Source of the DNA: Christensenellales bacterium
GTDB taxonomy: Bacteria > Bacillota > Clostridia > Christensenellales > CAG-138
Direction of reading: 5' to 3'
Assembly (NCBI GenBank): GCA_040767925.1
Contig: JAXGNN010000001.1
Location: 1,240,285 to 1,304,284 of the forward strand
Length of the DNA: 64,000 nucleotides
A program made the translations under genes and the position numbers. Each line of letters begins with the position of its first letter. Position 1 is the first letter of the stretch. The notes under the pieces were generated by a model that was not told where the DNA came from, ran no database searches, and worked only from the letters and a program-made list of their open reading frames with translations. This document shows positions 30,256 to 55,157 of the stretch, one piece after another.

Positions 30256-30396
30256 GGGCGTCTCCCCTCCGTACGGCAGCTTCAGTATACCGCGGAAGGC
30301 TTGCGGGAACATTTCCTGTTTGGTTGTTCTTTACAAATAGTTCGTTCAGAAGTTTGATCTGATTGATGCGAGCTGGCGAAGAGGCGTACGAACCGA

Positions 30397-31152
30397 TTAA
30401 TCCCCGAAGCGGAGCCGGACGACGAACGAGGGCGTCCCGTCGGGCAGCACCGCGCCGCGAAGCAGAAGCGCGCCATCCTTTTCGGCGCGCTCCAGGACGA
30501 GCGCGTCGCCGAGCTTCAGCTCGCGCATGAAATAGACGTCGAGCCTGCGGAGCCTGTCCATCGCCGCGCGCTCGCCTTCCGACATGGCGTCGTAGGCGAT
30601 TTCGCCGTACCGCCTGTTGTTGACGTGGCCGAGGCCGTCGAGCCAGCTCGGGCGGACGCGGCGCTCCTCCACGGGCCGGAAGGCGAGCCCTTCATCTGAA
30701 AAGCGGCTTTCGGCATCGAGGAGCTTTTTCCCCTCGGGAAGGGAGAAACGCGCGTGCACGGAGGAATCCAGGCAGAGCCTTCGCGATTTGACGTCGAGCA
30801 GCGCGAAGAAGCCCGCGCCGCGCATCGCTTCGGTTCCGCTTTCGTCGCGCGCGGTGAAATCGCGCCGGTAGACGGGACCGTGCCTCGCGGCGTGCCACGT
30901 TTGGGCCGTCAGCCTCTCCCCGGCCCTCACCGCCCGGTCGAGGGAAAGGTTCATCGCGATCATCACCCACGCCACGCCGTAGCGCGGCACGATGGTGGGC
31001 ATGTCCATGTCGACGGCCGCCAGGTGCTTCTCGAACAAGGCGGAGAACACCTGCTGGTACGAGGCGATCATGAGCGCGCCGCGCTCGTTGAAGAGCGAGG
31101 TGTCCAGCGTCAGGGGATAGGAATAATCAAGCTCGTTGAGGGAAACGATCAA
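30397..31152 (-). CDS. Acyl-ACP thioesterase family protein
   Basis: Hot-dog fold pattern; VRPSWLDGLGHVNNRRY motif; TTG start after AGGAGG. Confidence 0.85.
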   Translation of the reverse strand: MIVSLNELDYSYPLTLDTSLFNERGALMIASYQQVFSALFEKHLAAVDMDMPTIVPRYGVAWVMIAMNLSLDRAVRAGERLTAQTWHAARHGPVYRRDFTARDESGTEAMRGAGFFALLDVKSRRLCLDSSVHARFSLPEGKKLLDAESRFSDEGLAFRPVEERRVRPSWLDGLGHVNNRRYGEIAYDAMSEGERAAMDRLRRLDVYFMRELKLGDALVLERAEKDGALLLRGAVLPDGTPSFVVRLRFGD

Positions 31153-31224
31153 ATTCTGCCTCCTGAAAACCCGCGGCGGCCGCCGGATGAAAGAGGCCCG
31201 GGAGAGCCCCGGGCCGCCTGTTAT

Positions 31225-31389
31225 TTAAGCTTTCTTCTTCGTGGCCCGGTTGAGTATCGCGACGAACACCCAGATGATGGCGATCACGATGAATATGCCG
31301 AGCATCCCCCTGAGCATGACCATGAGGGATTGGAGCAGCGTTTCAGGCGCCCACTTGAGGGCGATTGCAGAGAGCGAAACGGAAAACAT
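31225..31389 (-). CDS. OadG-related small membrane subunit (54 aa)
   Basis: MFSVSLSAIALKWAPETLLQSLMVMLRGMLGIFIVIAIIWVFVAILNRATKKKA; AGGAGG RBS; directly downstream of the beta subunit. Confidence 0.75.
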   Translation of the reverse strand: MFSVSLSAIALKWAPETLLQSLMVMLRGMLGIFIVIAIIWVFVAILNRATKKKA

Positions 31390-31401
31390 GGCGTTACCTC
31401 C

Positions 31402-32508
31402 TTAGAGCAAGGGTTGTATGAGCGAGATGATGAGCCCGCCCGCGATGACGGACGCGATCTGGCCCGAAACGTTGGCGCCGGCCGCGTGCATGAGAAGGAA
31501 GTTGTCCGGATCCTCCTTGCGGCCCATCTTATGCACCACGCGCGAGGCCATGGGGAACGCCGAGATGCCCGCCGCGCCGATCATGGGGTTGACCTTCTCC
31601 TTGGCGAAGAGGTTCATCAGCTTCGCGAACATCACGCCGCCCACCGTATCGAACACGAAGGCGAAAAGCCCGAGGCCGATGATGGCGAGCGTTTCCACCG
31701 TGACGAACATGTGGGCCTGCATCTTGAAGGCGACCGAGAGGCCGAGCAGCAGCGTGATGAGGTTCGCAAGCTCCTTCTGCGCCGTGGCGGAAAGCCCGCC
31801 CAGCACGCCGCACTCGCGGATGAGGTTGCCGAACATCAAAAAGCCGATCAGCTCCGCGGACTTGGGCGCGATGGTGCCCGCGACGAACGTGACGAAGATC
31901 GGGAAGAGCACGCGCGTGGTCGCCGTGACGTCCTTGGGACGGTAGGGCATACGGATCATGCGCTCCTTCTTCGTGGTGATGGCCTTGATGACCGGCGGCT
32001 GGATGATGGGCACGAGCGCCATGTACGAATACGCGGCGACCATGATGGGCCCCTGATAATGCGAGTTGAAGAACTGCGAAACGAAGATGGCCGTGGGGCC
32101 GTCCGCCGCGCCGATGATGGCGATGGAACCCGCGTCGTTGAGCGCGAAGCCGATGAGGCGCGCGAGCAGCAGCGTGATGAAGATGCCGAACTGCGCCGCC
32201 GCCCCGAAGAGGAACATCTTGGGGTTGGAGAGCAGGGGGCCGAAGTCGATCATCGCGCCGATGCCGATGAAGAGCAGGAGCGGGAACAGCTCCGTCGCGA
32301 TGCCCGCGTTGAACAGGGTCGTGATCGCCTCAAGGTTGATGCCCGGCAGGTTGACCAGCACCGCGCCGAAGCCCATGGGCAGGAGCAGCGCGGGCTCCAT
32401 GTCCTTCCTGATGGCGAGATAGATGAGCGCGCAGCCCACCGCGATCATAACGCCCTGCTGCCAGGTAAAGCCGAGCGCATTGGAAAAAAGGTCGGTAAAG
32501 ATCTCCAA
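31402..32508 (-). CDS. oadB: Na+-translocating decarboxylase beta subunit
   Basis: EPALLLPMGFG, IGAMIDFGPLL, IIGAADGPTAIF, AAYSYMALVPIIQPP, GISAFPMASR. Confidence 0.92.
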   Translation of the reverse strand: MEIFTDLFSNALGFTWQQGVMIAVGCALIYLAIRKDMEPALLLPMGFGAVLVNLPGINLEAITTLFNAGIATELFPLLLFIGIGAMIDFGPLLSNPKMFLFGAAAQFGIFITLLLARLIGFALNDAGSIAIIGAADGPTAIFVSQFFNSHYQGPIMVAAYSYMALVPIIQPPVIKAITTKKERMIRMPYRPKDVTATTRVLFPIFVTFVAGTIAPKSAELIGFLMFGNLIRECGVLGGLSATAQKELANLITLLLGLSVAFKMQAHMFVTVETLAIIGLGLFAFVFDTVGGVMFAKLMNLFAKEKVNPMIGAAGISAFPMASRVVHKMGRKEDPDNFLLMHAAGANVSGQIASVIAGGLIISLIQPLL

Positions 32509-33054: not shown

Positions 33055-33627
33055 ATGAACATGAACAGGGCAAGGCCCGCGGCGGGGGCGCAAAAGGCGC
33101 TTGCCGTCCCGGGCGGAAACGCGGGCGCGGAAGCCATCCGCGCGGAATACGAGAACAGCCCGGAGTACAGGCTGGGCTGCGAGATCATCGATGAGCTCAC
33201 CGAGGCGCTCGGCATCGGCGCGGACGAGGTCGCCGCGATGCTCAGCGCGAAAACGCGCCCCCCGGGCTTCGACATGCTCGGGATGCAGGCGGCAAGCGCG
33301 CTCGAGGCGATGGAGAAGAACGGCCAGCTTTCGCGCGGCGTCGAGGAATACCTCTCTGACGCGAACTTCGTCAAACTCCTCAGGGAAGTGCCCGCGCAGG
33401 TGGCCGTGCGCCTTTCCGACGCGGAAGCCTCGACCAAAAAGGCGAACGAGCGCGTGGGCGCGGAGCGAAGCGCCGGCATCCAGGAGGTGCTCGAGAAACT
33501 CCGGGCGCGCCGCTCCCTCCCCGCGCAGACGCGCGCGGGCGCGACCGCTTCTGCCAAGCCGGATTTCTCCAACATGAGCACGGAGGAGTTCAACGCGTTT
33601 AAGCGCCGCTTCTTCGGCCACCGCTGA
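33055..33627 (+). CDS. Putative capsid scaffolding protein
   Basis: Helical, charged protein directly upstream of the capsid gene; C-terminal PDFSNMSTEEFNAF is typical of scaffolds; AAGGAG RBS. Confidence 0.6.
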   Translation: MNMNRARPAAGAQKALAVPGGNAGAEAIRAEYENSPEYRLGCEIIDELTEALGIGADEVAAMLSAKTRPPGFDMLGMQAASALEAMEKNGQLSRGVEEYLSDANFVKLLREVPAQVAVRLSDAEASTKKANERVGAERSAGIQEVLEKLRARRSLPAQTRAGATASAKPDFSNMSTEEFNAFKRRFFGHR

Positions 33628-33696
33628 AAACCGCGCGGGCGCCGCGGCGAGCAAGCAACGCAACAGCCAATAAGAAAAGCAAGAAAGGGAAAAAAC

Positions 33697-34902
33697 ATGA
33701 GCAACATCAACACGGTCCAAAACACCGCGTCCACGACGCATCTCGGCAAGGACTACTACGACCGCGCGATCCTCGAGGGCGCCCGGACGCGCTTCGTCCA
33801 CGCCAAATACGGCCAGAAGCGCAGCATCCCCCTCAACAACGGCAAGCGGGTGGAGTTTCGCAGGTGGAACCTGTTCGACGTCAACGAGGACATGTGCAAG
33901 CTCGAGGAGGGCGTAACGCCCGCCGGGCAGAGCCTCTCGCAGAGCAGCGTCGAGGCCGAGGTGGAGCAGTACGGCGCGTACGTCGAGCTCTCCGACCTTC
34001 TGGAAGACACGGCCTACGACCAGGTTTCCTCCGACAGCGCGGAACTTCTGGGCGAGCAGCTCGGCACGGTCGTCGAGTGGGTGACGCGCGACGCCATGTG
34101 CGGCGGCAACAACGTGCAGCGCGCGGGCGGCAAGGCTTCGCGCGCGCTCATCGCGGCGGCGGACACCCTCACGACCACGGAGGTGCGCAAAGCCGTGCGC
34201 ACGCTCAAGAAAGCCAAGGCACGCCCGTTCGCCGGCGAGGGGAACCGCAGGCCGCATTTCATCTGCATCTGCTCCCCCGACGCCACCTACGATTTGCAGA
34301 ACGACACGCTCTGGCAGGACGTTTCCAAATACTCCGGCTCGGAGCAGATCTATTCCGGCGAGATCGGCCGCATATTCGGCGTGGTGTTCGTGGAATCCAC
34401 GGAGTCGAAGGTCATCCGCCAGGCGGTGCACACGCAGGTCGCGAGCCACAGCGCGGGCAGCGCCAACGTCGTGGTGGACGAGATTACGGACGCCGCGTTC
34501 GCCTTCCTCTCCCGCGCGGGCGCGAAGGTCACCATCGGCGCGACGGAATACACGGCTTCCTCCGTCGATCAGGGGACGAAGACCATCGCGCTCTCCGCCC
34601 CCGTCGGCTCCGCCATCGCCGCGGACACCTATGTGTACAGCACAGAAGCGGGCGCCGTCAACGCGACGGACAAGACCGCCGCCGACGTGCACTTCTCCCT
34701 CGTGTTCGGCAAGGACGCCTACGGCGTCGTCGACCTCGAGGGGCGCGGCGCGATGCAGAGCATCGTCAAGCCCCGCGGCTCCGCCGGCGCGGACGACCCG
34801 CTCGATCAGCGCTCCACCGTGGGCGCGAAGGTGCCCGCCTACGCGGCCATCATACTCAACGACCTGTGGCTCGTGCGAATCGAGCACGGCGCGAGCGCGT
34901 AA
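33697..34902 (+). CDS. N4-gp56 family major capsid protein
   Basis: YYDRAIL, KYGQKRSIPLNNGKRVEFRR, LEEGVTPAG, QYGAYVELSD, GEIGRIFGVVFVES, FGKDAYG, GSAGADDPLDQRSTVGAK, WLVRIE. Confidence 0.9.
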   Translation: MSNINTVQNTASTTHLGKDYYDRAILEGARTRFVHAKYGQKRSIPLNNGKRVEFRRWNLFDVNEDMCKLEEGVTPAGQSLSQSSVEAEVEQYGAYVELSDLLEDTAYDQVSSDSAELLGEQLGTVVEWVTRDAMCGGNNVQRAGGKASRALIAAADTLTTTEVRKAVRTLKKAKARPFAGEGNRRPHFICICSPDATYDLQNDTLWQDVSKYSGSEQIYSGEIGRIFGVVFVESTESKVIRQAVHTQVASHSAGSANVVVDEITDAAFAFLSRAGAKVTIGATEYTASSVDQGTKTIALSAPVGSAIAADTYVYSTEAGAVNATDKTAADVHFSLVFGKDAYGVVDLEGRGAMQSIVKPRGSAGADDPLDQRSTVGAKVPAYAAIILNDLWLVRIEHGASA

Positions 34903-34931
34903 AATCGATTTTTCGCCACATCCCTTCGTTT

Positions 34932-34961
34932 GCGGGAGGCGGGCATTTGCCCGCCTCCCGC
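34932..34961. other. Perfect GC-rich hairpin after the capsid gene (no U tail)
   Basis: GCGGGAGGCGGGC-attt-GCCCGCCTCCCGC. Confidence 0.6.
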
Positions 34962-35034
34962 GCCCTTCGGCGCGAAGCACCCGGAACCGTCCCCGCGAAT
35001 GCAACGGAAACATAATAGAAAGGAAACGCCATAC

Positions 35035-36750
35035 ATGAAAAACCTGATTTACCACAGCGCGCCCAAGGGCGTACGGACGAGGGAGGAATTGAAGGAGCTC
35101 CAGAAGAACATCGGCGTCGCGCCCGACGGCGTGTGGAGCGCCGCCTCGGAAGCGGCCTACGAAAAGTACCTCGAGAGGTTCAGGGAGCCGATGACCGCCG
35201 CCTATCAGGTGGAAGGCTATTACGCGCCCGGCATGGTGCGCAACCAGAAGGACGTGAAGATGATGCAGGAGCTCCTCGGCAACGTGGCCGTCGACGGCGT
35301 CTGGGGCCCGGAGACCGACTCCGCCTACTGGCAGCGCATCGCGCTCGAGGAGGCGCGGGACAGCGGGAGCGTGCCGGAGGTATCCGCAACGCTCGCTTCC
35401 AGAATCTCAGCGGCGATAGCAAACACCAAGCCCGTGCCGGAAAACGGCATGCTTTTTCCGGCAAAGGCCGCAAGCGGATTGTCTGGAAGCAGATCGTCTG
35501 GATATACCGACAAGCCCCCCATGACTCAATCTTCACCTAACTCCGGGACAGGGCTTGCAGGAAGGATTGCGCAGGGAACAATGCCCAACAACGTTGATAT
35601 GGGCGCGGTTTCGGGCGCGAGCAACAACAAACCTGCAAGTGAAGAGAGCCTGCCGTTTTTCGCCACTCTTGACGCCGTCGATCAATATTACAACCCGCAA
35701 ATCGATGATCTATTAAAGAAGTATCTTTCCCTAAGAGCCGATGCGGGCCTTCGCGGCAAGCCTAAAGGTATCGGGGAGACGGACGACATCAGAGAAGCTT
35801 TACTCGACTATGAGCAGCTCATGGAACAACGTGATATGGCATATACCGGGGTTAAAAACCGCCAGAGAGAGGAGGCTCCTTATAACCCACGCCACAAGCC
35901 GCAGAAAAAGCGCAGCCGTTCTACGGGTGCGAATGAGCCAACGCTGACGGAACAGTTTCTTGAGTCCGAAACGCCGCCGCAAGATTTCATTGATTACATT
36001 TTTGAGTATGCTGATGACAACTACAGGCTTAAGAAAGACTTGATTGATGAATTCTACAACGTTTTCATTCCAACATATGCAGAAGTTTTAAAGGAGAAGA
36101 CGAATTATGTTTTGCCCGAATGGAATCCTTATCCCTATAAAAAACGAGCCATAGTCGTGGTGGACAAGAATAATGATCCTTGGGAGGTGCTAACTTTTAA
36201 TAATCCCGACTATGACGAAATTCTCGATGTGTATTTAGCTATAGAAAATGGGGAAACGCCGAAATTTACATCCTTCGAGTCAGCGACATATCGGCCGCAT
36301 TTTCACAGAACACCAGCTAAGCAATATGGCGAGTTTTCGTATAGTCCATATTTCCTAACAGCATCTGGATATTGTTTCAGTGTATACATGAATGGAGAAT
36401 ATACAAAGACTGCATATGTGGGTAATGAAATACCTTATGACGTTCAAATCGATGTAGATAAGAGAAAAATCTCAACATATCTTGAAGATATTGAAAAAAA
36501 CTATCTTTTCGAAGTGTTGCCTCAAGCGGTGCTTTCTTTTACAACAAATGCAGCGCTTGAGTATGCCGGCATGAGCGAGTATGATGTCGAGCGTTTTAAC
36601 AATGTCATGGAACTATATGAAATGTCGCAGCCTGAGCCAGCTTTTCCAGAGATACAATACAAAGCCGAGTACGAAATATACGTGTCAGTTAAAGTATACA
36701 ATAGTCGGCATCCTAACGGCAAGTGGGTGGAAGGGTTTGGCATAGAATAA
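35035..36750 (+). CDS. Putative polymorphic toxin/effector: two N-terminal PG-binding-like DGVW repeats, S/G/P linker, AT-rich unknown C-terminal domain
   Basis: Start MKNLIYH after GAAAGGA; repeats ..LQKNIGVAPDGVWS..AAY and ..MQELLGNVAVDGVWGPETDSAY; GC drops after about 35400. Confidence 0.65.
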   Translation: MKNLIYHSAPKGVRTREELKELQKNIGVAPDGVWSAASEAAYEKYLERFREPMTAAYQVEGYYAPGMVRNQKDVKMMQELLGNVAVDGVWGPETDSAYWQRIALEEARDSGSVPEVSATLASRISAAIANTKPVPENGMLFPAKAASGLSGSRSSGYTDKPPMTQSSPNSGTGLAGRIAQGTMPNNVDMGAVSGASNNKPASEESLPFFATLDAVDQYYNPQIDDLLKKYLSLRADAGLRGKPKGIGETDDIREALLDYEQLMEQRDMAYTGVKNRQREEAPYNPRHKPQKKRSRSTGANEPTLTEQFLESETPPQDFIDYIFEYADDNYRLKKDLIDEFYNVFIPTYAEVLKEKTNYVLPEWNPYPYKKRAIVVVDKNNDPWEVLTFNNPDYDEILDVYLAIENGETPKFTSFESATYRPHFHRTPAKQYGEFSYSPYFLTASGYCFSVYMNGEYTKTAYVGNEIPYDVQIDVDKRKISTYLEDIEKNYLFEVLPQAVLSFTTNAALEYAGMSEYDVERFNNVMELYEMSQPEPAFPEIQYKAEYEIYVSVKVYNSRHPNGKWVEGFGIE

Positions 36751-36752
36751 AA

Positions 36753-37346
36753 TCAATTCGGATATGTAAAAGCCCTCGTATACCCATGAGAAAGGCGCGA
36801 ATATATAACCGTGCGCACCTGAAGGCCAGTTTTATTTGTTACATCGCCAAACGACAGCCGGTTAAGATATCTATAATCCAGAAAAAAGACACTGAAGGAG
36901 TCTTCCGTCCATGTGAATGGTTCCAACTCATAGACACTATGTTCACGTTCATCCTTCGATGCATATTTGAAAAAAGCGCTGTAGAGATACTCGTTTATTG
37001 CAATTAGCCTCGTAGGCTCACTATATACGCTTACCGTTTCATCTATGCGGATTGCGTAAACTATGCCATCCCGCTCACGGCTGTAAACACGAAAGCAAAT
37101 ATCCTCATCGCCTATTACCGGCACGATACGGCACACAATGCCGTTACTGATACAAAATGAATTGTCGGTGATAGTATCATCCAGTTCAATGCCATCGGGA
37201 GAATTCCCCGCATTGAAACGCTCGATAAACTCGGAAGAATTCTTTATACCGGGCAGTACCTGGTCAAAGTATGTGGAGAGCAGCAACCACATAAGTCCCA
37301 GAATTATTGTTGCGCCAGCAATCCACCAAAAGAGCTTTTTGCGCAT
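36753..37346 (-). CDS. Membrane-anchored AT-rich protein, candidate immunity for the 35035 effector
   Basis: MRKKLFWWIAGATIILGLMWLLL N-terminal TM after GGGGGA; its stop is 2 nt from the effector stop; similarly low GC. Confidence 0.6.
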   Translation of the reverse strand: MRKKLFWWIAGATIILGLMWLLLSTYFDQVLPGIKNSSEFIERFNAGNSPDGIELDDTITDNSFCISNGIVCRIVPVIGDEDICFRVYSRERDGIVYAIRIDETVSVYSEPTRLIAINEYLYSAFFKYASKDEREHSVYELEPFTWTEDSFSVFFLDYRYLNRLSFGDVTNKTGLQVRTVIYSRLSHGYTRAFTYPN

Positions 37347-37601
37347 ATCTTCATCCCCCTGTGAGCAAAGGATATATGCGCTGCCGAAAAATGTCAACGG
37401 GAAGGATCTCGCGAACCCCTTTCCTCTGAACTGCATCTCGGAACTCGATCGCGCAATAAGCCGAAAGACAACTGAGATGCAGTTCATTTTGCTGATATCT
37501 ATTATATACATGTAGGCAAGCAGAAGGCCGATGCGCGCTTGCCCCTCCGTTGACAAATTAGTTGGGACAACAGTATACTCATGGCAACACCACGCCCAAA
37601 C

Positions 37602-37995
37602 CCCAACTCCATCAGGAAACGATCCTCCTGGCATTGATGAGGCCCATGGCGAGCGCAACAAACCGGCCGACCGTGCGCCCGGAACCACAGCCGTACTTTG
37701 GCAAAGGAAACCGCAGCCCCCGAAAAGACGCCGATCCAGGCCGATTACGAGGCGCTGAAGCGCTTTTCCTACCGGGACATCAGCGACAAGCCCTCCGTCT
37801 ACGAGGAACCCGGCACGGGAAGGACGAGGCCGCCGAAGGAAGGAGATACGTCGAAAGGCAGCGACGGCCGGTCTGATTTCTCTACCAATAAGGACGCTGT
37901 GATTGTATACGCGAGCAACCTGCTCAATCTGACGACCGCGAGAGAGAACAAAGAGGCGTGCTGTAACCTGTACTCGGTGATGGTCGATGGGAAAA
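37602..37995 (+). repeat. About 400-bp direct repeat, copy 1 (5' flank of toxin cassette)
   Basis: Near-identical to 39285-39677 (cccaactccatcaggaaacg...gggaaaag). Confidence 0.92.
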
Positions 37996-38522
37996 GATAT
38001 TACTTTACTGGTGAGGTTTTTATAGGCGAATATGGCAACGTGGTTACTCCATATTTAGCCGATTCATTATGGGAACGGTTGTATGTTTACCTAGTGGGGC
38101 TGTCCTATTTCAATCCAGTTAAATACGAAGGATTTATGCACTCACATCCATACTCTAGCAGTTCTGAAAGTTTTTCTAATCCGGACAGCGTTGTTGCATT
38201 TCTTTCGGGCGATATTTACCTTACAACACAAAGCGGTCGGATTAAAAAATTAACCGCAAAAGAGGCATGGGATAGCAAGTTCTCGAACCCGCCATCCAAA
38301 TCCTATAATGGCCTTTCCAGTATTGACACTACCTATGTGAGGAATATAAACGAAGGCTATATTCCAAATGACAATGATGTTATCGTAGCTCAAGTAAAAC
38401 AACGATACGATGAGGAACTTTCTTCTTTTCTGGAACTGCTTTTACAGGGTATGATTGAGGCTTCAGAAGATAGATATGAAAAACTTAGTGAAGAAGGTAA
38501 AAGATATGATTACAACAAATAA
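37602..38522 (+). pseudogene. Orphan toxin C-terminal cassette 1, DUF4329/JAB-like, with a +1 frameshift near 37703
   Basis: NKEACCNLY...EGFMHSHPY...FSNPD...IYLTTQSG. It reads ggcaaagg where copy 2 reads ggcaagg, which splits ORFs 37562 and 37698. No convincing RBS or start. Confidence 0.65.
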
Positions 38523-39234
38523 AGCACCAAAACACAGTAAGATCATTTTTTTATGTATCCTTCTCGCCTTGTTGTTCTCAGGTTGTATGATTGATGCCGA
38601 TGATAGGCTAACGTCAATGATGTTAATCAAGCCTCCCGATAAGATCATTTATTCCGTCGGACAGGATGATAAAATTGACGTTGGGGGCGCGGTTGTGCGA
38701 ACGCATCAGGATGTCATAAATCCTGAGGGCTTTTATCTTGAAAGAATCCTTTCTCATTTTGAGCAGAGCTATATACATACCAATACAGATTTTCAAAAAG
38801 CGGGCGTATATACGGTATTCGTCGCCCATAAGCGGTGGTTTTTCTTCTGGAAGGTTTATTTTCAATACACCATACAGGTCGTTTCTTTGGAAACCTATAG
38901 CCCTCAACCGGCAACGGAATTAGACTTTTATGCAAGAGATGCCGAATCAACCAAGTGTATAAATACCAGCGCCTATATGCTTGTTCCTCCACTCAACATC
39001 ATTTACCCTGTTGGTTATACAGGCGAAATCGACCTGTCGGGCATAGTAGTAAAACCGGCAAAAGGCTTATTCCCGAAGGAATATAACATCACAGATCTCG
39101 ACTACACGCTCGAGAGCGACGTGGACTTCAACACGCCGGGGAATTACATTGTGAAGGTGTTTTTCACGGACGACAGGGGGCGGGATTTATGGTTCTGCTT
39201 CACCGTGGCGGTCGCGGAGCCGGTGGAGAGGTAA
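38506..39234 (+). CDS. Lipoprotein with two bacterial Ig-like domains, candidate immunity protein 1
   Basis: Lipobox LLFSGC; KPPDKIIYSVG...TDFQKAGVYTVFV and PPLNIIYPVG...VDFNTPGNYIVKV repeats; overlaps the toxin stop. Confidence 0.7.
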   Translation: MITTNKAPKHSKIIFLCILLALLFSGCMIDADDRLTSMMLIKPPDKIIYSVGQDDKIDVGGAVVRTHQDVINPEGFYLERILSHFEQSYIHTNTDFQKAGVYTVFVAHKRWFFFWKVYFQYTIQVVSLETYSPQPATELDFYARDAESTKCINTSAYMLVPPLNIIYPVGYTGEIDLSGIVVKPAKGLFPKEYNITDLDYTLESDVDFNTPGNYIVKVFFTDDRGRDLWFCFTVAVAEPVER

Positions 39235-39236
39235 GC
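39082..39236 (+). repeat. About 155-bp direct repeat, copy 1 (3' flank of cassette)
   Basis: Near-identical to 40935-41089. Confidence 0.92.
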
Positions 39237-39284
39237 GTGGATGGATGTAGATACGGCAGCCTTGGGAAACCGGGGCTGCCGAAT

Positions 39285-39677
39285 CCCAACTCCATCAGGA
39301 AACGATCCTCCCGGCATTGATGCGCCCCATGGCGGGCGCATCAAACCGGCCGACCGTGCGCCCGGAGGCGCAGCCGTACTTTGGCAAGGAAACCGCAGCC
39401 CTCGAAAAGACGCCGATCCAGGCCGATTACGAGGCGCTCAAGCGCTTTTCCTACCGGGATATCAGCGACAGGCCCTCCGTCTACGAGGAACCCGGCACGG
39501 GAAGGACGAGGCCGCCGAAGGAAGGAGATACGTCGAAAGGCAGCGACGGCCGGCCTGATTTCTCTACCAATAAGGACGCTGTGATTGTATATGCCAGCAA
39601 CCTGCTCAACCTGACGACCGCGAGAGAAAACAAAGAGGCGTGCTGTAATCTGTACTCGGTGATGATCGACGGGAAAA
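39285..39677 (+). repeat. About 400-bp direct repeat, copy 2
   Basis: Matches 37602-37995. Confidence 0.92.
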
Positions 39678-40363
39678 GGCACTATTTCACTGGCGAAATC
39701 TTCGTAGGCGAGTTGGACAATGTGATCGTACCATATCTATCGGATGCTTTATGGGAATGGGAAAATACTTTTCTTAATGGACTTCTCGATTCCAAACGGA
39801 TTACCTATGAAGGGTTTATGCACTCGCATCCATATGATAATGTTTCCGATACGTACTCGGGAGGAATCGGAGATACCGCTGTTGCGATGCTTTCCGGTAA
39901 TATCTATCTCACAACACCTAAGGGGCATATCTACGACTTGGTACGGCCGGAAGAGATTATAAATGAATTGCTTAGAGCCAAGGGCGGGATTATGAGTTCT
40001 GCATTAACGCAAGCCCCGGCGAACGCCAAAGATGTCAAGGATTATCAGGACGCCCTGATCGCTTTAAAAGGATGGTTTAAGAATCCGCCGGAAGTGCCGT
40101 ATAACAACCTTCACAGCGTTGATACTACTGGTATTAGCATCTATAATCAAGTATATGATCGCAACATGCCTAAGGTTATCATAAATCTAGTCCAGCGTTA
40201 CTGGGAAAAAGAACATGGGCCCCTCGGCTTTGACTTATATGAAGCATATAAAAACCCAGGTTACCTTTTTGATGAACTCCGGCAGCAGCTCGGCCTTTTT
40301 GCAGAAGAAGCGGAACGGCAATACTACGAAAACGGAGGATCTCTAGATTATGGCAGCAAATAA
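39317..40363 (+). CDS. Orphan toxin C-terminal cassette 2, DUF4329/JAB-like
   Basis: Same conserved leader as cassette 1, then EGFMHSHPY...YSGGIGD...IYLTTPKG. The frame stays open upstream to a stop at 39248, with no clear RBS. Confidence 0.65.
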   Translation: MMRPMAGASNRPTVRPEAQPYFGKETAALEKTPIQADYEALKRFSYRDISDRPSVYEEPGTGRTRPPKEGDTSKGSDGRPDFSTNKDAVIVYASNLLNLTTARENKEACCNLYSVMIDGKRHYFTGEIFVGELDNVIVPYLSDALWEWENTFLNGLLDSKRITYEGFMHSHPYDNVSDTYSGGIGDTAVAMLSGNIYLTTPKGHIYDLVRPEEIINELLRAKGGIMSSALTQAPANAKDVKDYQDALIALKGWFKNPPEVPYNNLHSVDTTGISIYNQVYDRNMPKVIINLVQRYWEKEHGPLGFDLYEAYKNPGYLFDELRQQLGLFAEEAERQYYENGGSLDYGSK

Positions 40364-41087
40364 GCCTATAGTACGTTTCTTAGTTGTTTTAATAAGCGTT
40401 CTTCTAGCCTTGCTGCTCACAAGCTGCTCCGTACTTCCCGATTATCGTATGCAAGCCTTAATGTTGGTGAAACCTCCCGATAAACTGATTTATGTGATTA
40501 GACAGGATCAGAAACTGAACGCAAGCGGTGGGAGAATTATAGAGTACGCTGATTTTAATGGCGGTCGCCATGTGAAAATCAGCCTAGAATCATATGACTA
40601 TGATGCTTATGACGGGAAGTACTTTCACACAAACGCAAATCTCATTAGAGAGGGGACGTATATAGTCTCAATCGCCAAAAGGCATCTGTTTTTCTTCTGG
40701 AAGCGTTACTTCCAATTTACGATTCAGGTTGTTTCCCCAGGAAAATACAATGTCGATTCCTGTGTTCCCGAAGATGACTTCACATACGAGGAACTCGAGC
40801 CGACATATTGTGAAAACGCCACCGCCTACATGCTTACTCCTCCCTCAAACATTATTTATCCGGTAGGACATGAAGGTGCAATCGACCTTTCTGGTCTCGT
40901 AGTAAAGCCGGTAGAGGGAATGTTCGTGGAACCTTATAACATCACAGATCTCGACTACACGCTCGAAGGCGACGTGGACTTCAACACGCCCGGGAATTAC
41001 ATTGTGAAGGTGTTTTTCACGGACGACAGGGGGCGGGATTTATGGTTCTGCTTCACCGTGGCGGTAGCGGAGCCGGTGGAGGAGTAA
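40350..41087 (+). CDS. Lipoprotein with two bacterial Ig-like domains, candidate immunity protein 2
   Basis: Lipobox LLLTSC; paralog of 38506 with a divergent N-half and near-identical C-terminus; overlaps the toxin stop. Confidence 0.7.
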   Translation: MAANKPIVRFLVVLISVLLALLLTSCSVLPDYRMQALMLVKPPDKLIYVIRQDQKLNASGGRIIEYADFNGGRHVKISLESYDYDAYDGKYFHTNANLIREGTYIVSIAKRHLFFFWKRYFQFTIQVVSPGKYNVDSCVPEDDFTYEELEPTYCENATAYMLTPPSNIIYPVGHEGAIDLSGLVVKPVEGMFVEPYNITDLDYTLEGDVDFNTPGNYIVKVFFTDDRGRDLWFCFTVAVAEPVEE

Positions 41088-41089
41088 GT
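40935..41089 (+). repeat. About 155-bp direct repeat, copy 2
   Basis: Matches 39082-39236. Confidence 0.92.
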
Positions 41090-41143
41090 GCCTTATCCAT
41101 TCCTAAGGCAACCGCCCAAAATAGAATACGCGATCCGGTAAGG

Positions 41144-41167
41144 ACGGCTCCGCAGGGGGCCGTTTTT
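41144..41167 (+). terminator. Intrinsic terminator after the toxin/immunity array
   Basis: ACGGCTCC-gcag-GGGGCCGT followed by TTTT. Confidence 0.6.
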
Positions 41168-41243
41168 ATATGCCCGCATCCGCCGGCCCCGACACGGGCG
41201 GAAACGGCAAAAAAACGGGGAAACCCGAAACGAGGAGGATTCC

Positions 41244-41525
41244 ATGGATTATCTCAACGAGAACGAGATCGACAAGATCTCCGGGGACACGGGACGCGCG
41301 CTCGCCGCGCAGAGGAAGGTGAGCATCGTTATCGCACAATCGCCCGACGGCGCGCCGTGGGAGGGCTGCCTCAACGGCTACTTCTTCCGCATCCGGCGCG
41401 GGGTGCCCGTGGAGGTGCCGGAGGCCATCGCGGAATTGATCGGCGAGAACGCGCGCGTCACGGAGCTTGCCAAAGCCGCGATCCGCGAATACAGGGCCGG
41501 GCGCGGCAAAAAGCTCTCGGCGTAA
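41244..41525 (+). CDS. Phage-type hypothetical protein
   Basis: GAGGAGG RBS; LNGYFFRIRRGVPVEVPEAIAELI motif recalls small genes found after N4-gp56-type capsids. Confidence 0.65.
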   Translation: MDYLNENEIDKISGDTGRALAAQRKVSIVIAQSPDGAPWEGCLNGYFFRIRRGVPVEVPEAIAELIGENARVTELAKAAIREYRAGRGKKLSA

Positions 41526-41537
41526 GGAGGGATTGGA

Positions 41538-42083
41538 ATGACGCTCAACGACATCATCGTCTCCGCCCTCGCGCAGCTCGACCGCGGACACGACGCGCAG
41601 ACGCTCGACGTGTGGCGCGACAAGCTCACGCGCTTCGCCAACGACGCTTTGATCGACCTCGCATCCGCGGCGCAGCCGCGAAGAACCGAAACCGCAACGA
41701 TCGCGGGCGGGCGGCTCGACATCGGTGCGCTCGATCGGCCTTGCCTCAAGGTGCTTTTTGTCAGAAAAGACGGAAAAGCCCTCCCCTTCCGCCGCGGGGA
41801 GAACCCGGGCGAGCTCTTTGTCGAAAACGCGGCGGACGGCGAAATTAAAATCACCTACGCCTTCGCGCCGAGGGAGCTTTCCGCCGCGACCGACGTTCCG
41901 GAACTGCCCCTCCCCTGCCACGCGCTGATCGTGACCTACGTCGTGGGGCGCGAGCGCGCCTCGGGCGACGTCTCCGTGCAGCGCGGCGGCAACGTCTACT
42001 TCCAGATGTACGAGGCCGGAAAGCACATGCTTCGCCCCGGCCTCGGCAGCCCCGACGAATACAAAATCGTCAACAGGTGGTGA
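41538..42083 (+). CDS. Putative head-tail adaptor protein
   Basis: MTLNDII start, ITY..P.EL...TD.PELP..CH.LIV.Y pattern of podoviral adaptors; gene position. Confidence 0.6.
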   Translation: MTLNDIIVSALAQLDRGHDAQTLDVWRDKLTRFANDALIDLASAAQPRRTETATIAGGRLDIGALDRPCLKVLFVRKDGKALPFRRGENPGELFVENAADGEIKITYAFAPRELSAATDVPELPLPCHALIVTYVVGRERASGDVSVQRGGNVYFQMYEAGKHMLRPGLGSPDEYKIVNRW

Positions 42084-42088
42084 GGGCG

Positions 42089-43513
42089 ATGTCGGTGAAG
42101 ATTTTCAGGATCGACGAGTTCTACGGCATCGACCAGTCCCGCGACGAGAACGCGATCCCCTTCTCCATGCGCCCCGACGCCTGCAACATGGACACGGAAA
42201 ACGGCGCGCTCGCCGTCGCGAAAGGCTATGCGCGTCACATCCCCGCGCCCGTCCCCGGGGAGGGAGAAATCCACGCGCTGTGCGTCTACGCGAGAAGCGC
42301 GGGCGACATGTTCGTATGCGCCGCGGGCGAGAGCCTCTGCGCGTGGGACGGCGAAAGCTGGCGGGAGGTCTATACCTACGAAGGCGGCCTCGCCCTGCAC
42401 CGCTTCGACTTCGAGCAGGCGCAGATCGGCGGCACGGACTACCTCGTCGTCGGTTGCGGGGAGAGGCGGCTCGTCAAGTTCGACGGGACCTCGGCGACGC
42501 TTTTCGGCAGCAGCGAGGAGGCGAGCGACATCCACGCGCTGTACCTTTCGATGTACCGGGGAAGGCTCTTCGCGGCGGGCGACCCCGATAACCCCAACCG
42601 GCTCTATTGGAGCCAGCTTCCCGGCAGCGGAAGGAGCATCGAATCCTGGGGGCCGGTCGAGGCTTCCCCCAACGTGGAGGGCGGGCACGCGGAAGTGGGC
42701 AGCATCGCGAGCGATCCCATATTGGGCCTCGCCGCGCTCTCCAACCAGCTCGTCATCTTCAAGAAGCACAGCATCTACCGGCTCCTCGGCGACAGGCCCG
42801 GCAACTTCACCATCGAGGAGGTCGATTCCCGCGCCGAGCGCACGGCGAACACGGCCGTGGTCAAATGCGGGGACGCGCTCTATTTCATGACGGCGGGCGG
42901 CATGTGTTGCTTCAACGGCGTGACAGCCGAACCCATGCGGGACGCGCGGCGCATCCGGAACATCCTCGCGGCGGCGGACGTTTCCCGCTCGATGGGCGCG
43001 CTGTGCCGCGACAGGCTATATTTTTCGCTTGAGGACGCGCAGGGCGGCGCGCTCGTGGAATACGACCTCGTGCGCGGGACCTACATGCTGCGGCGCGGCT
43101 TTCACGTACGGGGCCTCGCCGCGCGGGATGGGAAACTCTACCTCGTCGACGCCGCGCGGCACGTCTGCCGCTTCAACGAGGGGGGCACCTACGACGGCGC
43201 GCCGATTTCCGCCTGGTGGCGTACGCCGGAAAGCGACCTTCGCGAGAAAAGCGCCGTCAAGGGAATGCGCGCGCTGTACCTGCGCGGCAATTCCGACGCG
43301 CGCGCGTCCGCGACGCTCGTGGACGTCAAAACGGGCAACATCACGGAAACGCACAGGCTGCTTCTGCCCGAGGGCGGGAGCGCGGTGCTCGAGGTGCCCC
43401 TGAAGAACGAGGGGCGCACGTTCAGCCTTCGCTTCTACAACGAAGCGGGCGGGCATTTTTCCATCAACTCGGGCGCCGAAATCGAATTCGAACAGAAAAG
43501 GAGGACCATCTGA
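42089..43513 (+). CDS. Putative short-tail nozzle/stabilisation protein (beta-propeller-like)
   Basis: F.GID start, C.NMD...GAL, YRGRLF.AG...NRLYWS, LVIFK..SIY motifs, as in P22 gp10/T7 gp12-like proteins. Confidence 0.6.
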   Translation: MSVKIFRIDEFYGIDQSRDENAIPFSMRPDACNMDTENGALAVAKGYARHIPAPVPGEGEIHALCVYARSAGDMFVCAAGESLCAWDGESWREVYTYEGGLALHRFDFEQAQIGGTDYLVVGCGERRLVKFDGTSATLFGSSEEASDIHALYLSMYRGRLFAAGDPDNPNRLYWSQLPGSGRSIESWGPVEASPNVEGGHAEVGSIASDPILGLAALSNQLVIFKKHSIYRLLGDRPGNFTIEEVDSRAERTANTAVVKCGDALYFMTAGGMCCFNGVTAEPMRDARRIRNILAAADVSRSMGALCRDRLYFSLEDAQGGALVEYDLVRGTYMLRRGFHVRGLAARDGKLYLVDAARHVCRFNEGGTYDGAPISAWWRTPESDLREKSAVKGMRALYLRGNSDARASATLVDVKTGNITETHRLLLPEGGSAVLEVPLKNEGRTFSLRFYNEAGGHFSINSGAEIEFEQKRRTI

Positions 43514-43707
43514 TGGCGCTTGACATGCGCGCGCTCTATTACATCGCGCTCGCCGCGCTCGCCGCGGATGCGAACGGCGGGCAGGAATACGAGAAAAACC
43601 GGGCGATCGAAAACTGCCTCAATCAGAACTTCACGATCATGGCGCAGAAGATCGCCGAGCTGGAGGCGCGCCTCAGTTCGGTTGAAAACGCGCTGGGCTC
43701 CCTGTGA
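43513..43707 (+). CDS. Small coiled-coil virion-associated protein
   Basis: TGATG coupling to the upstream gene, GGAGG RBS; LNQNF...KIAELEARL. Confidence 0.55.
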   Translation: MALDMRALYYIALAALAADANGGQEYEKNRAIENCLNQNFTIMAQKIAELEARLSSVENALGSL

Positions 43708-43722
43708 GCGAAAGGAGGAACT

Positions 43723-44619
43723 ATGGCAAGCTATTCTCTCAAAGGTTACGCGACGCCTTCGGGCGTCGACAGCCGCGAGAAGGTCAAGGACTACCAAAGG
43801 ATGCTCGGCGTCACGGCGGACGGCATCTGGGGCCCCGTCACGCAGGCGGCGTACGAGAGGTATAACGCGGGCATATACGGCATGTCCAGCCCGTTCGGCG
43901 CCGCGGGAGACGCGTTCCCGAAATATTACGAGGCCATCCGCGGGATGATCGCCGCGCCGGGCGTTTCGGTGAGCGTCCCCTCCCGCGAGGAGATCGCGCG
44001 GGATTACGCGGAGGCCCTGCGCCCCGGCGTGGACCTCGCGATCCAAACCCGGCGAAGGCGCGGCGAGGAGGCGATGGCCGAGATCGACGCGGACGCGGCC
44101 TCCCGCGGGATGGCGGCCTCCACCTACGTGAGCTCCATGAAGGAGCGCGAGGGGGACGACGTCGAGGGGGACGTGTCCATGATGGAGGCGCAGTATACGG
44201 CGACGCTCGCGGAGCGCATCGCCGCCGCGCTCGAGCATTATTCTTCGCTCGAGTTCGAGGCGGCGCGCACGAACGCGCAGATGGCGCAGAGCGCAGGCAG
44301 CGCCGCGGCGGGCATCGCCATGCAGTGGTACCAGAGCTATCTTAACGGCATGGGCGTCGCGGGCGTCGCGCCCTCGGGCACCTGGGAAGAACCGCGGCTC
44401 TCCCCCGAGGATTATCTCGAATATGTGGCGCTGCTCGGCGCCGCGGGCAGGCGGGAACTGTTCTATTCCCCGTCGGAGGAGTGGGCGAAAAGGCGGGAGG
44501 AGCTCATCGAGGCGCTCGGGCGAGAGCGCTACGAGGCGCTCAAACGCCAGTACGCATACGCGACCGGTTCGGGCGCGACGAGCGCGGGAGGTAGGCTATG
44601 GCAGAACAGCACGAAGTGA
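43723..44619 (+). CDS. Putative internal/ejection virion protein with an N-terminal PG-binding-like DGIWG repeat
   Basis: AAGGAGG RBS; YQRMLGVTADGIWGPVTQAAY; helical body with AASRGM..S motif; sits after the nozzle gene. Confidence 0.55.
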   Translation: MASYSLKGYATPSGVDSREKVKDYQRMLGVTADGIWGPVTQAAYERYNAGIYGMSSPFGAAGDAFPKYYEAIRGMIAAPGVSVSVPSREEIARDYAEALRPGVDLAIQTRRRRGEEAMAEIDADAASRGMAASTYVSSMKEREGDDVEGDVSMMEAQYTATLAERIAAALEHYSSLEFEAARTNAQMAQSAGSAAAGIAMQWYQSYLNGMGVAGVAPSGTWEEPRLSPEDYLEYVALLGAAGRRELFYSPSEEWAKRREELIEALGRERYEALKRQYAYATGSGATSAGGRLWQNSTK

Positions 44620-45725
44620 AGAAGCGCTTTGAAATCGCGCTCGACATCAGCCGCCCCATCTCCAACCGCGCGTTCACGCTCGTCGAGGGGGATACGGGGA
44701 ACGAGCTGATCATCTCCCTCGCCGACGACGGCGAGCCCGTGGACCTCGCGGGCTGCCGCGTGATGGCGCTCTTCTCCAAATCGGACGGGACGACCGTTTC
44801 GCAGGACAGCGGCACCGAACAGAACGGCATAACGCTCGGCGGGGACGCGGGCAACGTGATTTCGATCGATCTTTTCGCCTCCTCTTTCGCGCCCGGCATG
44901 GTGGAGTGCGAGATACAGATCTACTCGGGCGCGGCGCTCGCGACCCTCGTCACAAGCGCGAAGTTCAACTTCCGCTGCCGCAGGAGCATACTCAACGCGG
45001 ACACCATCGCGGCCGTGCCCGAATACCCGCTGTTGACCTCGCTGCTCGCGGACACGATAGCGCTCTCGGCCCAAACCGCCCTGGCGCTGAACGAGGCGCA
45101 GGCGGCCATCGATGCCGCCGGGACGGGCGAGGCCGCGCGGAACGCCGCGGAAGCCGCCCGCGCCGGCGCCGAAGACGCGAGAGGCGCGGCGGAAACGGCG
45201 CGCATCGGCGCGGAAACGGCGCGCGCGGGGGCGGAAATCGCACGCGCGTCGGCCGAGCTTGCGCGCGCGCAAGGCTATCTCGCGCTCGAGAACCGGCTCG
45301 ACGCAGCCATCGGCGACGCGGACGGGCTCGTGGCGGAGCTGGAAGCGGCCGTGGAGACCCTCCCCGAGATCGCGGAAATCTCCGGCATACTCATGGGGGA
45401 CGGCGCGGGCAACGTGCGCGCCGCCGCGGCGAACGCGGATTACTACGAGCCGCCGCTTCGCGCGCATGATCTCAGCGTCGCGACCGGCGCGTGGGCCGAC
45501 GACGCGACCTACGCGGCCTACCCCAAGCGCGCCGCGGTTTTTGTCGCGGGGGCCGCGGCGGACATGGTGCCGGAGGTGACGTTCGCGCTCGCGGACGCCG
45601 TGTCCGGTCTTTTGGCGCCGGTCGCCGAAACGTACGCGGGCGGCGTATATCTCTACGCCGCGGAAACCCCGGCGGCGGTCGTGACGATCAGGACCCTGAC
45701 CTTCTGGAAGGCGGTGGGCGCATGA
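44598..45725 (+). CDS. BppU-like baseplate/fibre protein with coiled-coil repeats
   Basis: EGDTGNEL.I.L.DDGEPVDL.G......FSKSDGT N-domain; AETAR heptads. Confidence 0.7.
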   Translation: MAEQHEVKKRFEIALDISRPISNRAFTLVEGDTGNELIISLADDGEPVDLAGCRVMALFSKSDGTTVSQDSGTEQNGITLGGDAGNVISIDLFASSFAPGMVECEIQIYSGAALATLVTSAKFNFRCRRSILNADTIAAVPEYPLLTSLLADTIALSAQTALALNEAQAAIDAAGTGEAARNAAEAARAGAEDARGAAETARIGAETARAGAEIARASAELARAQGYLALENRLDAAIGDADGLVAELEAAVETLPEIAEISGILMGDGAGNVRAAAANADYYEPPLRAHDLSVATGAWADDATYAAYPKRAAVFVAGAAADMVPEVTFALADAVSGLLAPVAETYAGGVYLYAAETPAAVVTIRTLTFWKAVGA

Positions 45726-46558
45726 TCGGCAGGACGAACGCGACTTCGGGCGGCTCCTCCCTGGTAAAGGGGGGAGCCGTCCTCGCCTCCCACAGCGCGG
45801 GCGCTCCCGGCATGACCGACCGCGGCGTCGTGACGCTCGGCGACGGGAAGCAGTACCGCCTGCTGGAAATCAAGCAGAGCGGGACGCTGAGCTTCAACGC
45901 CGCGCAGCTTAAAAAAGGCATCCGCGCGGATGTCTGCGTCGTAAGCGGCGGGCAGGGCGGCGGACGCGGCGGAGCGAATCACGGCGGCTACGGCGGAAGG
46001 ATGCTCAATCTGTACGGGCTGCTTCTGGACGATTTGAGCGTGGTGATCGGAGCCGGGGGCGCGGGCGCCGCTTCCAGCAATTATGGATCGCTGGGAGGTC
46101 AGTCCACGCTCAGGCGCGCTTCCGACGCGGGCGCCATGGGGCCGATCCCCGGCGTCGGCACAGGCGGCGGCCGGGGAGGCTACTCTTCATCGCAGGGCGC
46201 GTATCAATTTGGCGACGCAATCGGCAAAAAGCCTTTCGACGACGCGTCCTATTTCAGCCCGCATTGCGGCGGCGGAGGCGGCGGCGCGTACAGCCCCGGA
46301 GGCGGCGGCAACTACACGGGCGGCGCGGGCGGGACGAACGGCGGAGACGGCGCGCATCGCATCTCCGTGGGTTCCCCGCAGGGGCAGCCTGGGCCGGCGG
46401 GCGACGCAAGCGCCGGCGCGGGCGGGGCCTACAACGCCGCCGGAGCGGCCGCCTCTTACTATGGCGGCGGCGGAGGCGGCGGCGGATCGAACGGCACCAC
46501 GGACCGGAACGGCGGCAACGGCTATCAGGGCGTCGTCTGGGTCCGGATTCCGGCGTAA
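45722..46558 (+). CDS. Glycine-rich tail-fibre/receptor-binding protein
   Basis: MIGRTNA start coupled to the upstream stop; DVCVVSGGQGGG, VVIGAGGAG, GGGGGG, GYQGVVWVR Gly-rich domain. Confidence 0.7.
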   Translation: MIGRTNATSGGSSLVKGGAVLASHSAGAPGMTDRGVVTLGDGKQYRLLEIKQSGTLSFNAAQLKKGIRADVCVVSGGQGGGRGGANHGGYGGRMLNLYGLLLDDLSVVIGAGGAGAASSNYGSLGGQSTLRRASDAGAMGPIPGVGTGGGRGGYSSSQGAYQFGDAIGKKPFDDASYFSPHCGGGGGGAYSPGGGGNYTGGAGGTNGGDGAHRISVGSPQGQPGPAGDASAGAGGAYNAAGAAASYYGGGGGGGGSNGTTDRNGGNGYQGVVWVRIPA

Positions 46559-46567
46559 GGAGGGAAT

Positions 46568-53787: not shown

Positions 53788-53788
53788 C

Positions 53789-55135: not shown

Positions 55136-55157
55136 ATCATAAAAGGAGGATATTGAA

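Follow-up and report, generated by a model that had tools for sequence, protein, structure and literature searches.

Phage-borne polymorphic toxins are already known in the form of the MuF fusions of temperate phages (Jamet et al. 2017, PMC5576092; Bxa and Apk2, PMC11699363). Here we describe an island of six genes found in a stretch of 64,000 nt (the window, to which all positions below refer) from a Christensenellales bacterium (GCA_040767925.1, contig JAXGNN010000001.1, positions 1,240,285 to 1,304,284 of the forward strand). On the comparative evidence we consider it probable, if well short of certain, that this island is an accessory polymorphic toxin-immunity locus lodged in the late operon that encodes the structural proteins of a conserved particle cluster of podovirus origin. 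Like the MuF systems, the locus belongs to a phage-derived element of Firmicutes, lies within the head or packaging module or adjoins it, lacks a classical secretion signal and would combine a conserved N-terminal carrier with variable C-terminal tips, followed by small immunity genes (PMC5576092, PMC11699363). It departs from what is described for MuF in that the carrier is a pair of peptidoglycan-binding-like repeats with no MuF domain, the slot in the window follows the capsid gene and is not beside the portal gene, the putative protectors are lipoproteins or membrane-anchored proteins whereas those of MuF are small cytoplasmic proteins, and the host element looks like a family-wide gene transfer agent (GTA) instead of a temperate phage.

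Further parallels are found in the Rhs and contact-dependent growth inhibition (CDI) loci (Zhang et al. 2012, PMC3482391), where tandem tip-immunity modules likewise come after a full toxin gene and retain a short part of the conserved upstream region, identity breaks sharply at the tip junction and poly-immunity arrays occur; the JAB domain of our locus is also carried by an Rhs protein (P0132). Unlike in these loci, the junction is here a low-complexity linker and not a fixed motif, the full-length gene of the window has no DNA in common with its orphans, and no Rhs, filamentous haemagglutinin or LXG trafficking region is present. The same source gives E, H[ST]H, S, D as the signature of Tox-JAB-2 (DUF4329), proposes a nuclease role for toxin JAB domains and describes the DUF4329 tips of Gram-negative Rhs proteins as predicted nucleases with cytoplasmic-type immunity, while Tox-JAB-1, which its available text reports only from Bacteroidetes Rhs proteins, pairs with the lipoprotein immunity Imm65 (PMC3482391). 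The domains of the window resemble both in the signature and in their occurrence as toxin tips, and Tox-JAB-1 also in the lipoprotein partner, but they score under the DUF4329 threshold and their lipoproteins match no Pfam immunity family. As for the host element, the podovirus-like GTA of Faecalibacterium (FpGTA, PMC12946183), with the operon I order TerS-TerL-portal-scaffold-capsid, has a similar set of podovirus-type terminase, portal, scaffold and capsid genes plus fibre, holin and endolysin genes, the comparison being one of layout and not of homology. Conservation extends over a lineage of anaerobic Firmicutes in both cases, and the cluster of the window, like FpGTA, appears to be divided among separate loci. 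Toxin cassettes are not mentioned in the available text on FpGTA.

Composition of the island and occupancy of the slot

The open reading frames (ORFs) and other features of the region are the following.

35.0-41.1 kb: the island, AT-rich, six genes in about 6 kb, with the capsid gene to its left and the SU10-type adaptor gene to its right
33697-34902, plus strand: major capsid gene, left flank of the slot (Phage_capsid_3, E 4.7e-9)
34903-35034, plus strand: capsid-ORF-A spacer of 132 nt, two GC-rich hairpins with no U-tract, then the ORF-A ribosome-binding site
35035-36750, plus strand: ORF-A (571 aa), candidate full-length polymorphic toxin
36753-37346, minus strand: ORF-B (197 aa), convergent with ORF-A, weak candidate immunity gene
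37596-38003, plus strand: 5' handle of module 1, GC-rich, linker remnant and first part of the JAB region
37698-38522, plus strand: JAB1 (274 aa), orphan JAB-like candidate toxin tip lacking the N-terminal domain
38506-39234, plus strand: Lipo1 (242 aa from the ATG at 38506), lipoprotein, candidate immunity
39317-40363, plus strand: JAB2 (348 aa), second orphan JAB-like candidate tip
40350-41087, plus strand: Lipo2 (245 aa), lipoprotein, candidate immunity
41244-42083, plus strand: 93-aa gene and SU10-type adaptor gene, right flank (SU10_adaptor at 41538-42083, E 8.7e-7)
43723-44619, plus strand: structural-module protein of 298 aa (p298), whose first 45 or so residues resemble the N-terminal repeats of the toxin

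The original prediction had placed an AT-richer island of about 6 kb in the structural operon, and this first observation was confirmed by the base composition and by the Pfam matches of the capsid and adaptor flanks. GC content is 0.62-0.70 in the flanks and 0.37-0.48 within 35.75-37.25, 37.75-38.75 and 39.5-40.75 kb. At third codon positions (GC3) it is 0.92 in the capsid gene and 0.84 in the adaptor gene, while in ORF-A it goes from 0.78 (codons 1-200) to 0.43 (codons 237-571), bearing out the host-like 5' end and foreign 3' part that had been proposed for this gene. The same description fits each cassette, since the 5' parts of the JAB genes have GC3 values of 0.74-0.76 and the remainders 0.34-0.45; the lipoprotein genes have 0.44 in domain 1 and 0.61-0.62 in domain 2, and ORF-B has 0.46. 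All six ORFs are open, and PHROG and NCBIfam searches gave no match for any of the six proteins. The spacer that precedes them folds with a minimum free energy of -50.8 kcal/mol (z -3.76), none of 200 shuffled versions being equally stable.

Sixteen genomes of the genus were surveyed, with the capsid gene found in 13, the adaptor gene in 13 and both on one contig in 11. The capsid-adaptor gap measures 273-537 bp in eight of them (G088, G090, G094-G097, G101 and G102), with room for the 93-aa gene only, which in G088 and G090 stands immediately after the capsid gene. In the filled genomes it extends to 3023 bp (G100), 6335 bp (G089) and 6639 bp (the genome of the window), and two more slots (G099 and G093) are filled and truncated by contig ends. 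The slot is empty in 8 of the 13 assessable genomes, and the gap sizes indicate that the island is an accessory insertion. In G089 the slot holds a gene that joins an ORF-A-type N-terminus to a JAB domain, with one in-frame stop, three lipoprotein paralogues and an ABC-F gene. G099 has an intact N-terminus-JAB gene of 517 aa and a paralogue at the contig end, G093 has two lipoprotein paralogues at the contig end, and G100 only one immunity-like paralogue and an ABC-F gene. The stop in the G089 toxin (L006, about 10745) corresponds to a tryptophan in the metagenome protein P0008, and the three immunity-like genes beside it are intact. The ABC-F type ATPase gene (about 540 aa) stands beside immunity-like genes (L006 14161-15783; L038 5203-6834, minus strand) in the G089 and G100 slots and is absent from the island of the window.

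Exchange of C-terminal tips in relatives

A polymorphic toxin had been expected to show a conserved N-terminus with varying C-termini, and sharp breakpoints of this kind were found in three pairs of proteins among the relatives of ORF-A, which were drawn from 5.8 billion proteins. P0003 and P0012 are 100% identical up to about residue 210 and at most 30% afterwards, identity between P0010 and P0011 is 100% as far as residue 390 or so and at most 33% beyond it, and P0005 and P0006 share 100% identity to about residue 150, where they switch. The ORF-A-type N-terminus is fused to a JAB domain in P0003 and P0005-P0009, and the fusions of G089 and G099 occupy the very slot of ORF-A. The JAB genes of the window align to these fusion proteins starting in the middle of the linker, for which reason they look like displaced orphan tips.

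A lipoprotein profile search matched 12 of 239 family genomes, five of which belong to the sister genus g43. There, a protein of 523-623 aa with one peptidoglycan-binding-like repeat, a central region and a JAB domain is encoded directly after the portal gene. Behind it comes an array in which JAB fragments are mixed with four to nine membrane-anchored proteins homologous to lipoprotein domain 1 (130-175 aa; 145-175 aa in L054). The loci are L053 (G142:C26, 8621-13811), L054 (G141:C27, 6210-13741) and L055 (G140:C32, 6969-11496). Their position in the portal slot shows that the system is recurrent and not tied to the capsid gene. The orphan tip-immunity cassettes predicted downstream of the full gene are represented by the two modules of the window and by the alternation of JAB fragments with immunity-like genes in these three loci. 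The wider claim of a full toxin followed by immunity and orphan cassettes is backed by the comparative data as far as the architecture goes, but the immunity assigned to ORF-B is weak and the two cassettes are of a single toxin type.

The island, or parts of it, was present in sequencing runs of seven studies. One metagenome contig from another study matches ORF-A up to 35744 and then diverges, and other metagenome contigs depart from the conserved handles at 37764 and 39287. In a wastewater metagenome, positions 39281 and 40348 are connected within one contig through 21 letters of other sequence, which leaves a Lipo1-like gene and Lipo2 with no JAB2; this bridged joint is the exception to the rule that uncovered island parts in X5 and X7 were not counted as absence. 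The RNA run X20 gave short contigs with tiny shares on the 5' end of ORF-A, on ORF-B and on Lipo2, which were not counted as expression. No confirmed locus for P0003 or P0012 came out of the IMG/VR scans and the metagenome contig scan.

JAB domains and lipoproteins as one variable block

JAB1-Lipo1 and JAB2-Lipo2 form a tandem duplication. Two toxin-immunity pairs had been proposed and two tandem modules are indeed present, but the full-length identity of 58% between the JAB proteins and 54% between the lipoproteins indicates diverged copies of one candidate toxin type and not two toxin classes. At the DNA level the 5' handle of module 1 (37596-38003) is 89-95% identical to 39279-39685, and within 37596-37996 identity is 90-99%. 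Over the stretch formed by the JAB catalytic region and lipoprotein domain 1 it is 13-62%, and it rises to 77-98% in domain 2. From this pattern, the variable JAB part and the variable lipoprotein part make up one contiguous block between conserved handles. The start of Lipo1 overlaps the stop of JAB1 by 17 nt and that of Lipo2 overlaps JAB2 by 14 nt. Both lipoprotein genes have ribosome-binding sites (GGAGGA before the ATG in Lipo2) and neither JAB gene has one. JAB1 begins with TTG, and a 1-bp insertion relative to JAB2 separates its frame from the linker remnant, of which JAB2 still reads about 25 codons.

The lipoproteins have hydrophobic N-termini, with the signal peptide and lipobox cysteine of bacterial lipoproteins (FSGC, read from the sequence, in Lipo1 and LTSC in Lipo2). 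The first G089 paralogue has LSGC, and in three other paralogues the anchor is present and the cysteine absent. Lipo1 and Lipo2 are made of two tandem homologous repeats of about 100 aa, domain 1 being variable and domain 2 conserved, and their sole match outside the system is a weak one to an internalin domain. No hydrophobic segment was found in the toxin proteins; an N-terminal one is present in ORF-B, in both lipoproteins and in all eight immunity-like proteins of the g43 locus L054. Comparison of JAB identity with lipoprotein domain-1 identity gives r 0.58, a value from six non-independent comparisons among four loci. In domain 1, the two extra G089 paralogues are 63-65% identical to the G099 cognate against 42-45% to their own neighbour, which is the pattern expected for orphan immunity directed against a neighbour's allele.

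Some 30 of the 126 matches from a profile search of 1.84 billion representatives lie over the JAB region; 20 of these were aligned and short fragments were left out. In 22 aligned JAB sequences E, H-x-H and S do not vary and D is kept in at least 90%, and in 13 aligned JAB domain sequences none of the five residues (E, H, H, S, D) varies. The region thereby carries the E...H[ST]H...S...D signature of Tox-JAB-2/DUF4329, so that the JAB-like pattern originally noticed stands at the level of these residues, although not at that of the Pfam DUF4329 score, which is below the cut-off. In a fairly confident AlphaFold2 model of the JAB2 tip (predicted local distance difference test, pLDDT, 79; predicted template modelling score, pTM, 0.66), E30 precedes a strand, H92 and H94 close a strand and D109 sits on the helix that follows, presumably the JAMM arrangement. 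RHS repeats precede the JAB domain in P0132 (RHS_repeat, E 7e-17), and an Rhs-core-end motif precedes it in P0076 and P0091. Sequence searches of the PDB found no match with alignment A2 and only spurious repeat matches to designed propellers with alignment A7, and JAB2 had no match among the INPHARED phages.

The full-length gene and ORF-B

The ribosome-binding site of ORF-A (AAAGGA) lies 9-12 nt upstream of the ATG. Its product starts with the two peptidoglycan-binding-like repeats (35044-35358, the first 110 residues or so), followed by the low-complexity linker and, from about 35743, by the foreign C-terminal part. PG_binding_1 scores 17.7 bits against a cut-off of 23 and the match to PG_binding_3 is also sub-threshold. 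Among 12 aligned relatives, taking matches with E up to 1, PG_binding_3 was found in nine and PG_binding_1 in eight, and in multi-repeat relatives PG_binding_1 passes the 23-bit cut-off (P0015 with 25.0, P0019 with 67.7 and P0020 with 76.0 bits). ORF-A has no signal peptide and no hydrophobic N-terminus (KD19 maximum 1.0), and it has no Rhs, LXG, WXG or MuF match that would provide a recognised trafficking or secretion domain. Nor was an Rhs, filamentous haemagglutinin, LXG or other known trafficking region found in the other island proteins of the window. The system had been proposed not to be MuF-based, and this agrees with the absence of MuF matches when ORF-A, its relatives and toxins of the g43 type were scanned with Pfam. 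ORF-A has no sequence in common with the cassettes, and DNA comparison between them found nothing above chance. An RNase label was considered for the C-terminus and is not claimed: residues 300-571 of P0010, which is 94% identical to ORF-A, reached a best atlas score of 0.79, and the EndoU and RNase-A-type toxin clusters scored 0.75-0.76, below the level of a usable lead.

ORF-B has a ribosome-binding site of its own (GGGGGA before the ATG), an N-terminal membrane anchor (KD19 2.13 at residue 5) and a promoter-like site at 37397-37369 with 10 of 12 matches; Pfam, PHROG and NCBIfam gave no match. As a candidate immunity gene it does adjoin ORF-A, but it lies on the minus strand, which the prediction had left unsaid, it has no relatives in the family and the lipoprotein profile showed no relation to it. 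The case for ORF-B as the immunity gene of ORF-A is weak.

The particle cluster

The capsid protein of the window is 36% identical to that of Bacillus phage Pascal and 32% to those of Paenibacillus podoviruses. Of the 239 family genomes, 204 have a homologue (60-92% identical among the matches listed), as do 110 of the 123 high-quality genomes and 46 of the 50 genera, in almost every case as a single copy. The podovirus-type head, tail and lysis cluster (33055-48293) is separated by host-type genes from the terminase-portal region (53257-56747). Between the end of the holin gene at 48293 and the terminase-portal pair (53789-56747) there are an alanyl-tRNA synthetase (AlaRS)-type gene and an RraB/DUF695 gene. 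The former (50220-52034, minus strand, 604 aa) has the class II AlaRS catalytic domain and the second additional domain, and falls short of the usual length of bacterial AlaRS. There is also a DnaC/IstB-like ORF, and no integrase was found among the ORFs scanned, a scan that did not cover every ORF. The terminase and capsid genes of four complete genomes from another genus are on one strand and 3-4 kb apart, which fits the order of FpGTA operon I. Taken together, conservation and layout suggest that the host element is probably a family-wide, vertically inherited and domesticated GTA-like cluster rather than an ordinary prophage, and it is from these that the label GTA-like is drawn.

In the window (host genes at 28957-32508), and likewise in G089, G099 and G100, the scaffold-capsid end borders on an oxaloacetate decarboxylase beta-type gene, with a thioesterase gene also at this boundary in the window and G089; in G088 and G090 it is not beside these host genes. 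The cluster has a separate NlpC/P60-SH3 endolysin and a holin, and on these grounds an endolysin reading of ORF-A was rejected. In p298, PG_binding_1 scores 24.4 bits against the cut-off of 23, and its start matches residues 7-47 of ORF-A (E 2e-6), in agreement with local alignments. It opens with a unit, GY.P.GV...E.K..Q..LGV..DG.WG, that is also found in the two repeats of the toxin. Homologues of p298 occur in most family genomes and make up most of the 68 of 239 genomes matched with the toxin N-terminus.

Proposed mechanism and alternative explanations

The interpretation put forward with the original prediction is partly supported, on comparative evidence. What counts in its favour is the insertion into the slot, the polymorphism of the relatives, the N-terminus-JAB fusions, the orphans, the contiguous variable block, the Rhs association and the g43 arrays. 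Under this interpretation ORF-A would be the current full-length toxin, made of a repeat carrier, a disordered linker and a replaceable C-terminal part, and the JAB-lipoprotein modules would be displaced former tips. The ancestor would have had an N-terminus-JAB gene and a lipoprotein gene, an arrangement retained by two sister genomes; a recombination event within the linker would then have brought the new C-terminus and ORF-B, leaving the old tips downstream as poorly translated orphans whose lipoprotein genes remain translatable. ORF-A would be made with the late genes and leave the cell upon holin/endolysin lysis of a producing subpopulation, or possibly on the particle, lysis being the simplest way out given that ORF-A lacks a secretion signal and the cluster has a holin and an endolysin. 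Colicins and S-type pyocins also lack a signal peptide, are released by lysis of a producing subpopulation and are countered by immunity in kin. The toxin of the window is like them in having no signal peptide and in the lysis release and kin immunity proposed here, and unlike them in that a phage-like particle cluster would bring about the lysis, in the polymorphism by tip replacement and in the outward-facing immunity. Outside the cell, the N-terminus of ORF-A may dock on the exposed cell wall of neighbours, and the JAB-type tips would be zinc-metallohydrolase-like. With protectors on the outer face of the membrane and a peptidoglycan-binding carrier, the tips most likely act at the envelope, where the lipoproteins would protect kin, their variable domain 1 binding or blocking the tip. 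Tox-JAB-1 and its lipoprotein Imm65 provide a precedent for such a pair (PMC3482391).

Several findings weigh against this interpretation. The C-terminal half of ORF-A has no recognised toxin domain and just two relatives, and the lack of DNA in common between ORF-A and the present cassettes makes recombination with them impossible. ORF-B was found in one of 239 family genomes, with no relatives in the other 238. The identity of the tips is itself marginal by Pfam, JAB1 reaching DUF4329 (PF14220) with E 0.089 and 13.2 bits against a cut-off of 28.6 and JAB2 giving no match, and among the 13 JAB domain sequences DUF4329 matches five and Prok-JAB two, all of them weakly (best E 8.3e-5). The cytoplasmic-type immunity of Gram-negative DUF4329 tips makes outward-facing protectors unusual for this domain. 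The frame-shifting insertion of JAB1 and the in-frame stop of the G089 toxin mean that parts of these loci are decaying, and promoter-like sites are barely above chance (13 against 8.8 +/- 2.8).

Among the alternatives, we first considered a particle-borne effector in the manner of the MuF toxins, in which the repeats bring the toxin inside the particle or attach it to the outside, the tip acts within the target cell, for example as a nuclease, and the membrane-anchored proteins block entry and not the enzyme. The similarity between the N-termini of ORF-A and p298 speaks for it, as do the missing secretion signal and the position in the structural operon, which in g43 is directly after the portal gene, the usual place of MuF (PMC5576092), and a nuclease role has been proposed for toxin JAB domains (PMC3482391). 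However, Pfam scans detected no MuF domain, the eight empty slots make the toxin gene dispensable for the particle, and a peptidoglycan-binding carrier with outward-facing protectors is better suited to extracellular action. We regard this explanation as unlikely.

Another possibility is that the island serves infection. ORF-A would then be a cell-wall hydrolase that is associated with the particle and whose catalytic domains can be exchanged, and the lipoproteins would act in exclusion by inhibiting the hydrolase that arriving particles bring. The peptidoglycan-binding-like N-terminus, the late-operon position and the extracytoplasmic partners would all suit such a role, and an arms race between hydrolase and inhibitor would likewise yield variable modules. 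Against this, the genes are missing from 8 of the 13 assessable elements of the genus and are therefore not needed for particle function, the cluster already has its NlpC/P60 endolysin, the JAB domain occurs on Rhs toxins, and orphan tip fragments with poly-immunity arrays are typical of toxin loci, all of which makes an infection aid very unlikely. Decaying cargo of no present function, the remnants of a moron being lost, would account for the JAB1 insertion, the G089 stop, the JAB orphans with no ribosome-binding sites and the metagenome variant of another study that lacks JAB2, but with six open ORFs, invariant catalytic-type residues, lipoprotein genes that keep their ribosome-binding sites and lipoboxes, and an island kept wholly or in part across runs of seven studies, we give it hardly any credence.

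Implications

Set against the MuF fusions, the locus appears to provide what is new here, a second carrier for phage-borne polymorphic toxins, built of peptidoglycan-binding-like repeats. The system has outward-facing lipoprotein or membrane-anchored partners and uses two slots of a podovirus-derived element, one after the capsid gene and the other after the portal gene, in an element that is conserved in about 85% of genomes across a family of anaerobic Firmicutes. The JAB tip and its lipoprotein are also an experimentally easy pair for asking what toxin-type JAB domains cleave, a question for which no experimental answer was found in the available text of the literature on these toxins.

A bolder version, to which we attach a small chance, would have the host cluster be a GTA that carries the toxin on its particles by means of the repeats common to p298, turning the particle into a kin-discriminating device. 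If so, recipients with the matching outward-facing lipoprotein would survive and receive DNA while adsorbing non-kin would be damaged at the envelope, and tip replacement together with the immunity arrays would define GTA compatibility groups. If the element is indeed such an agent, as the recently described FpGTA suggests, the making of GTA particles and altruistic lysis would be linked to interbacterial antagonism and kin discrimination; among the papers listed on GTAs and polymorphic toxins, no title or abstract takes up this link. In this family, particle production and lysis may thus serve as bacterial warfare as well.

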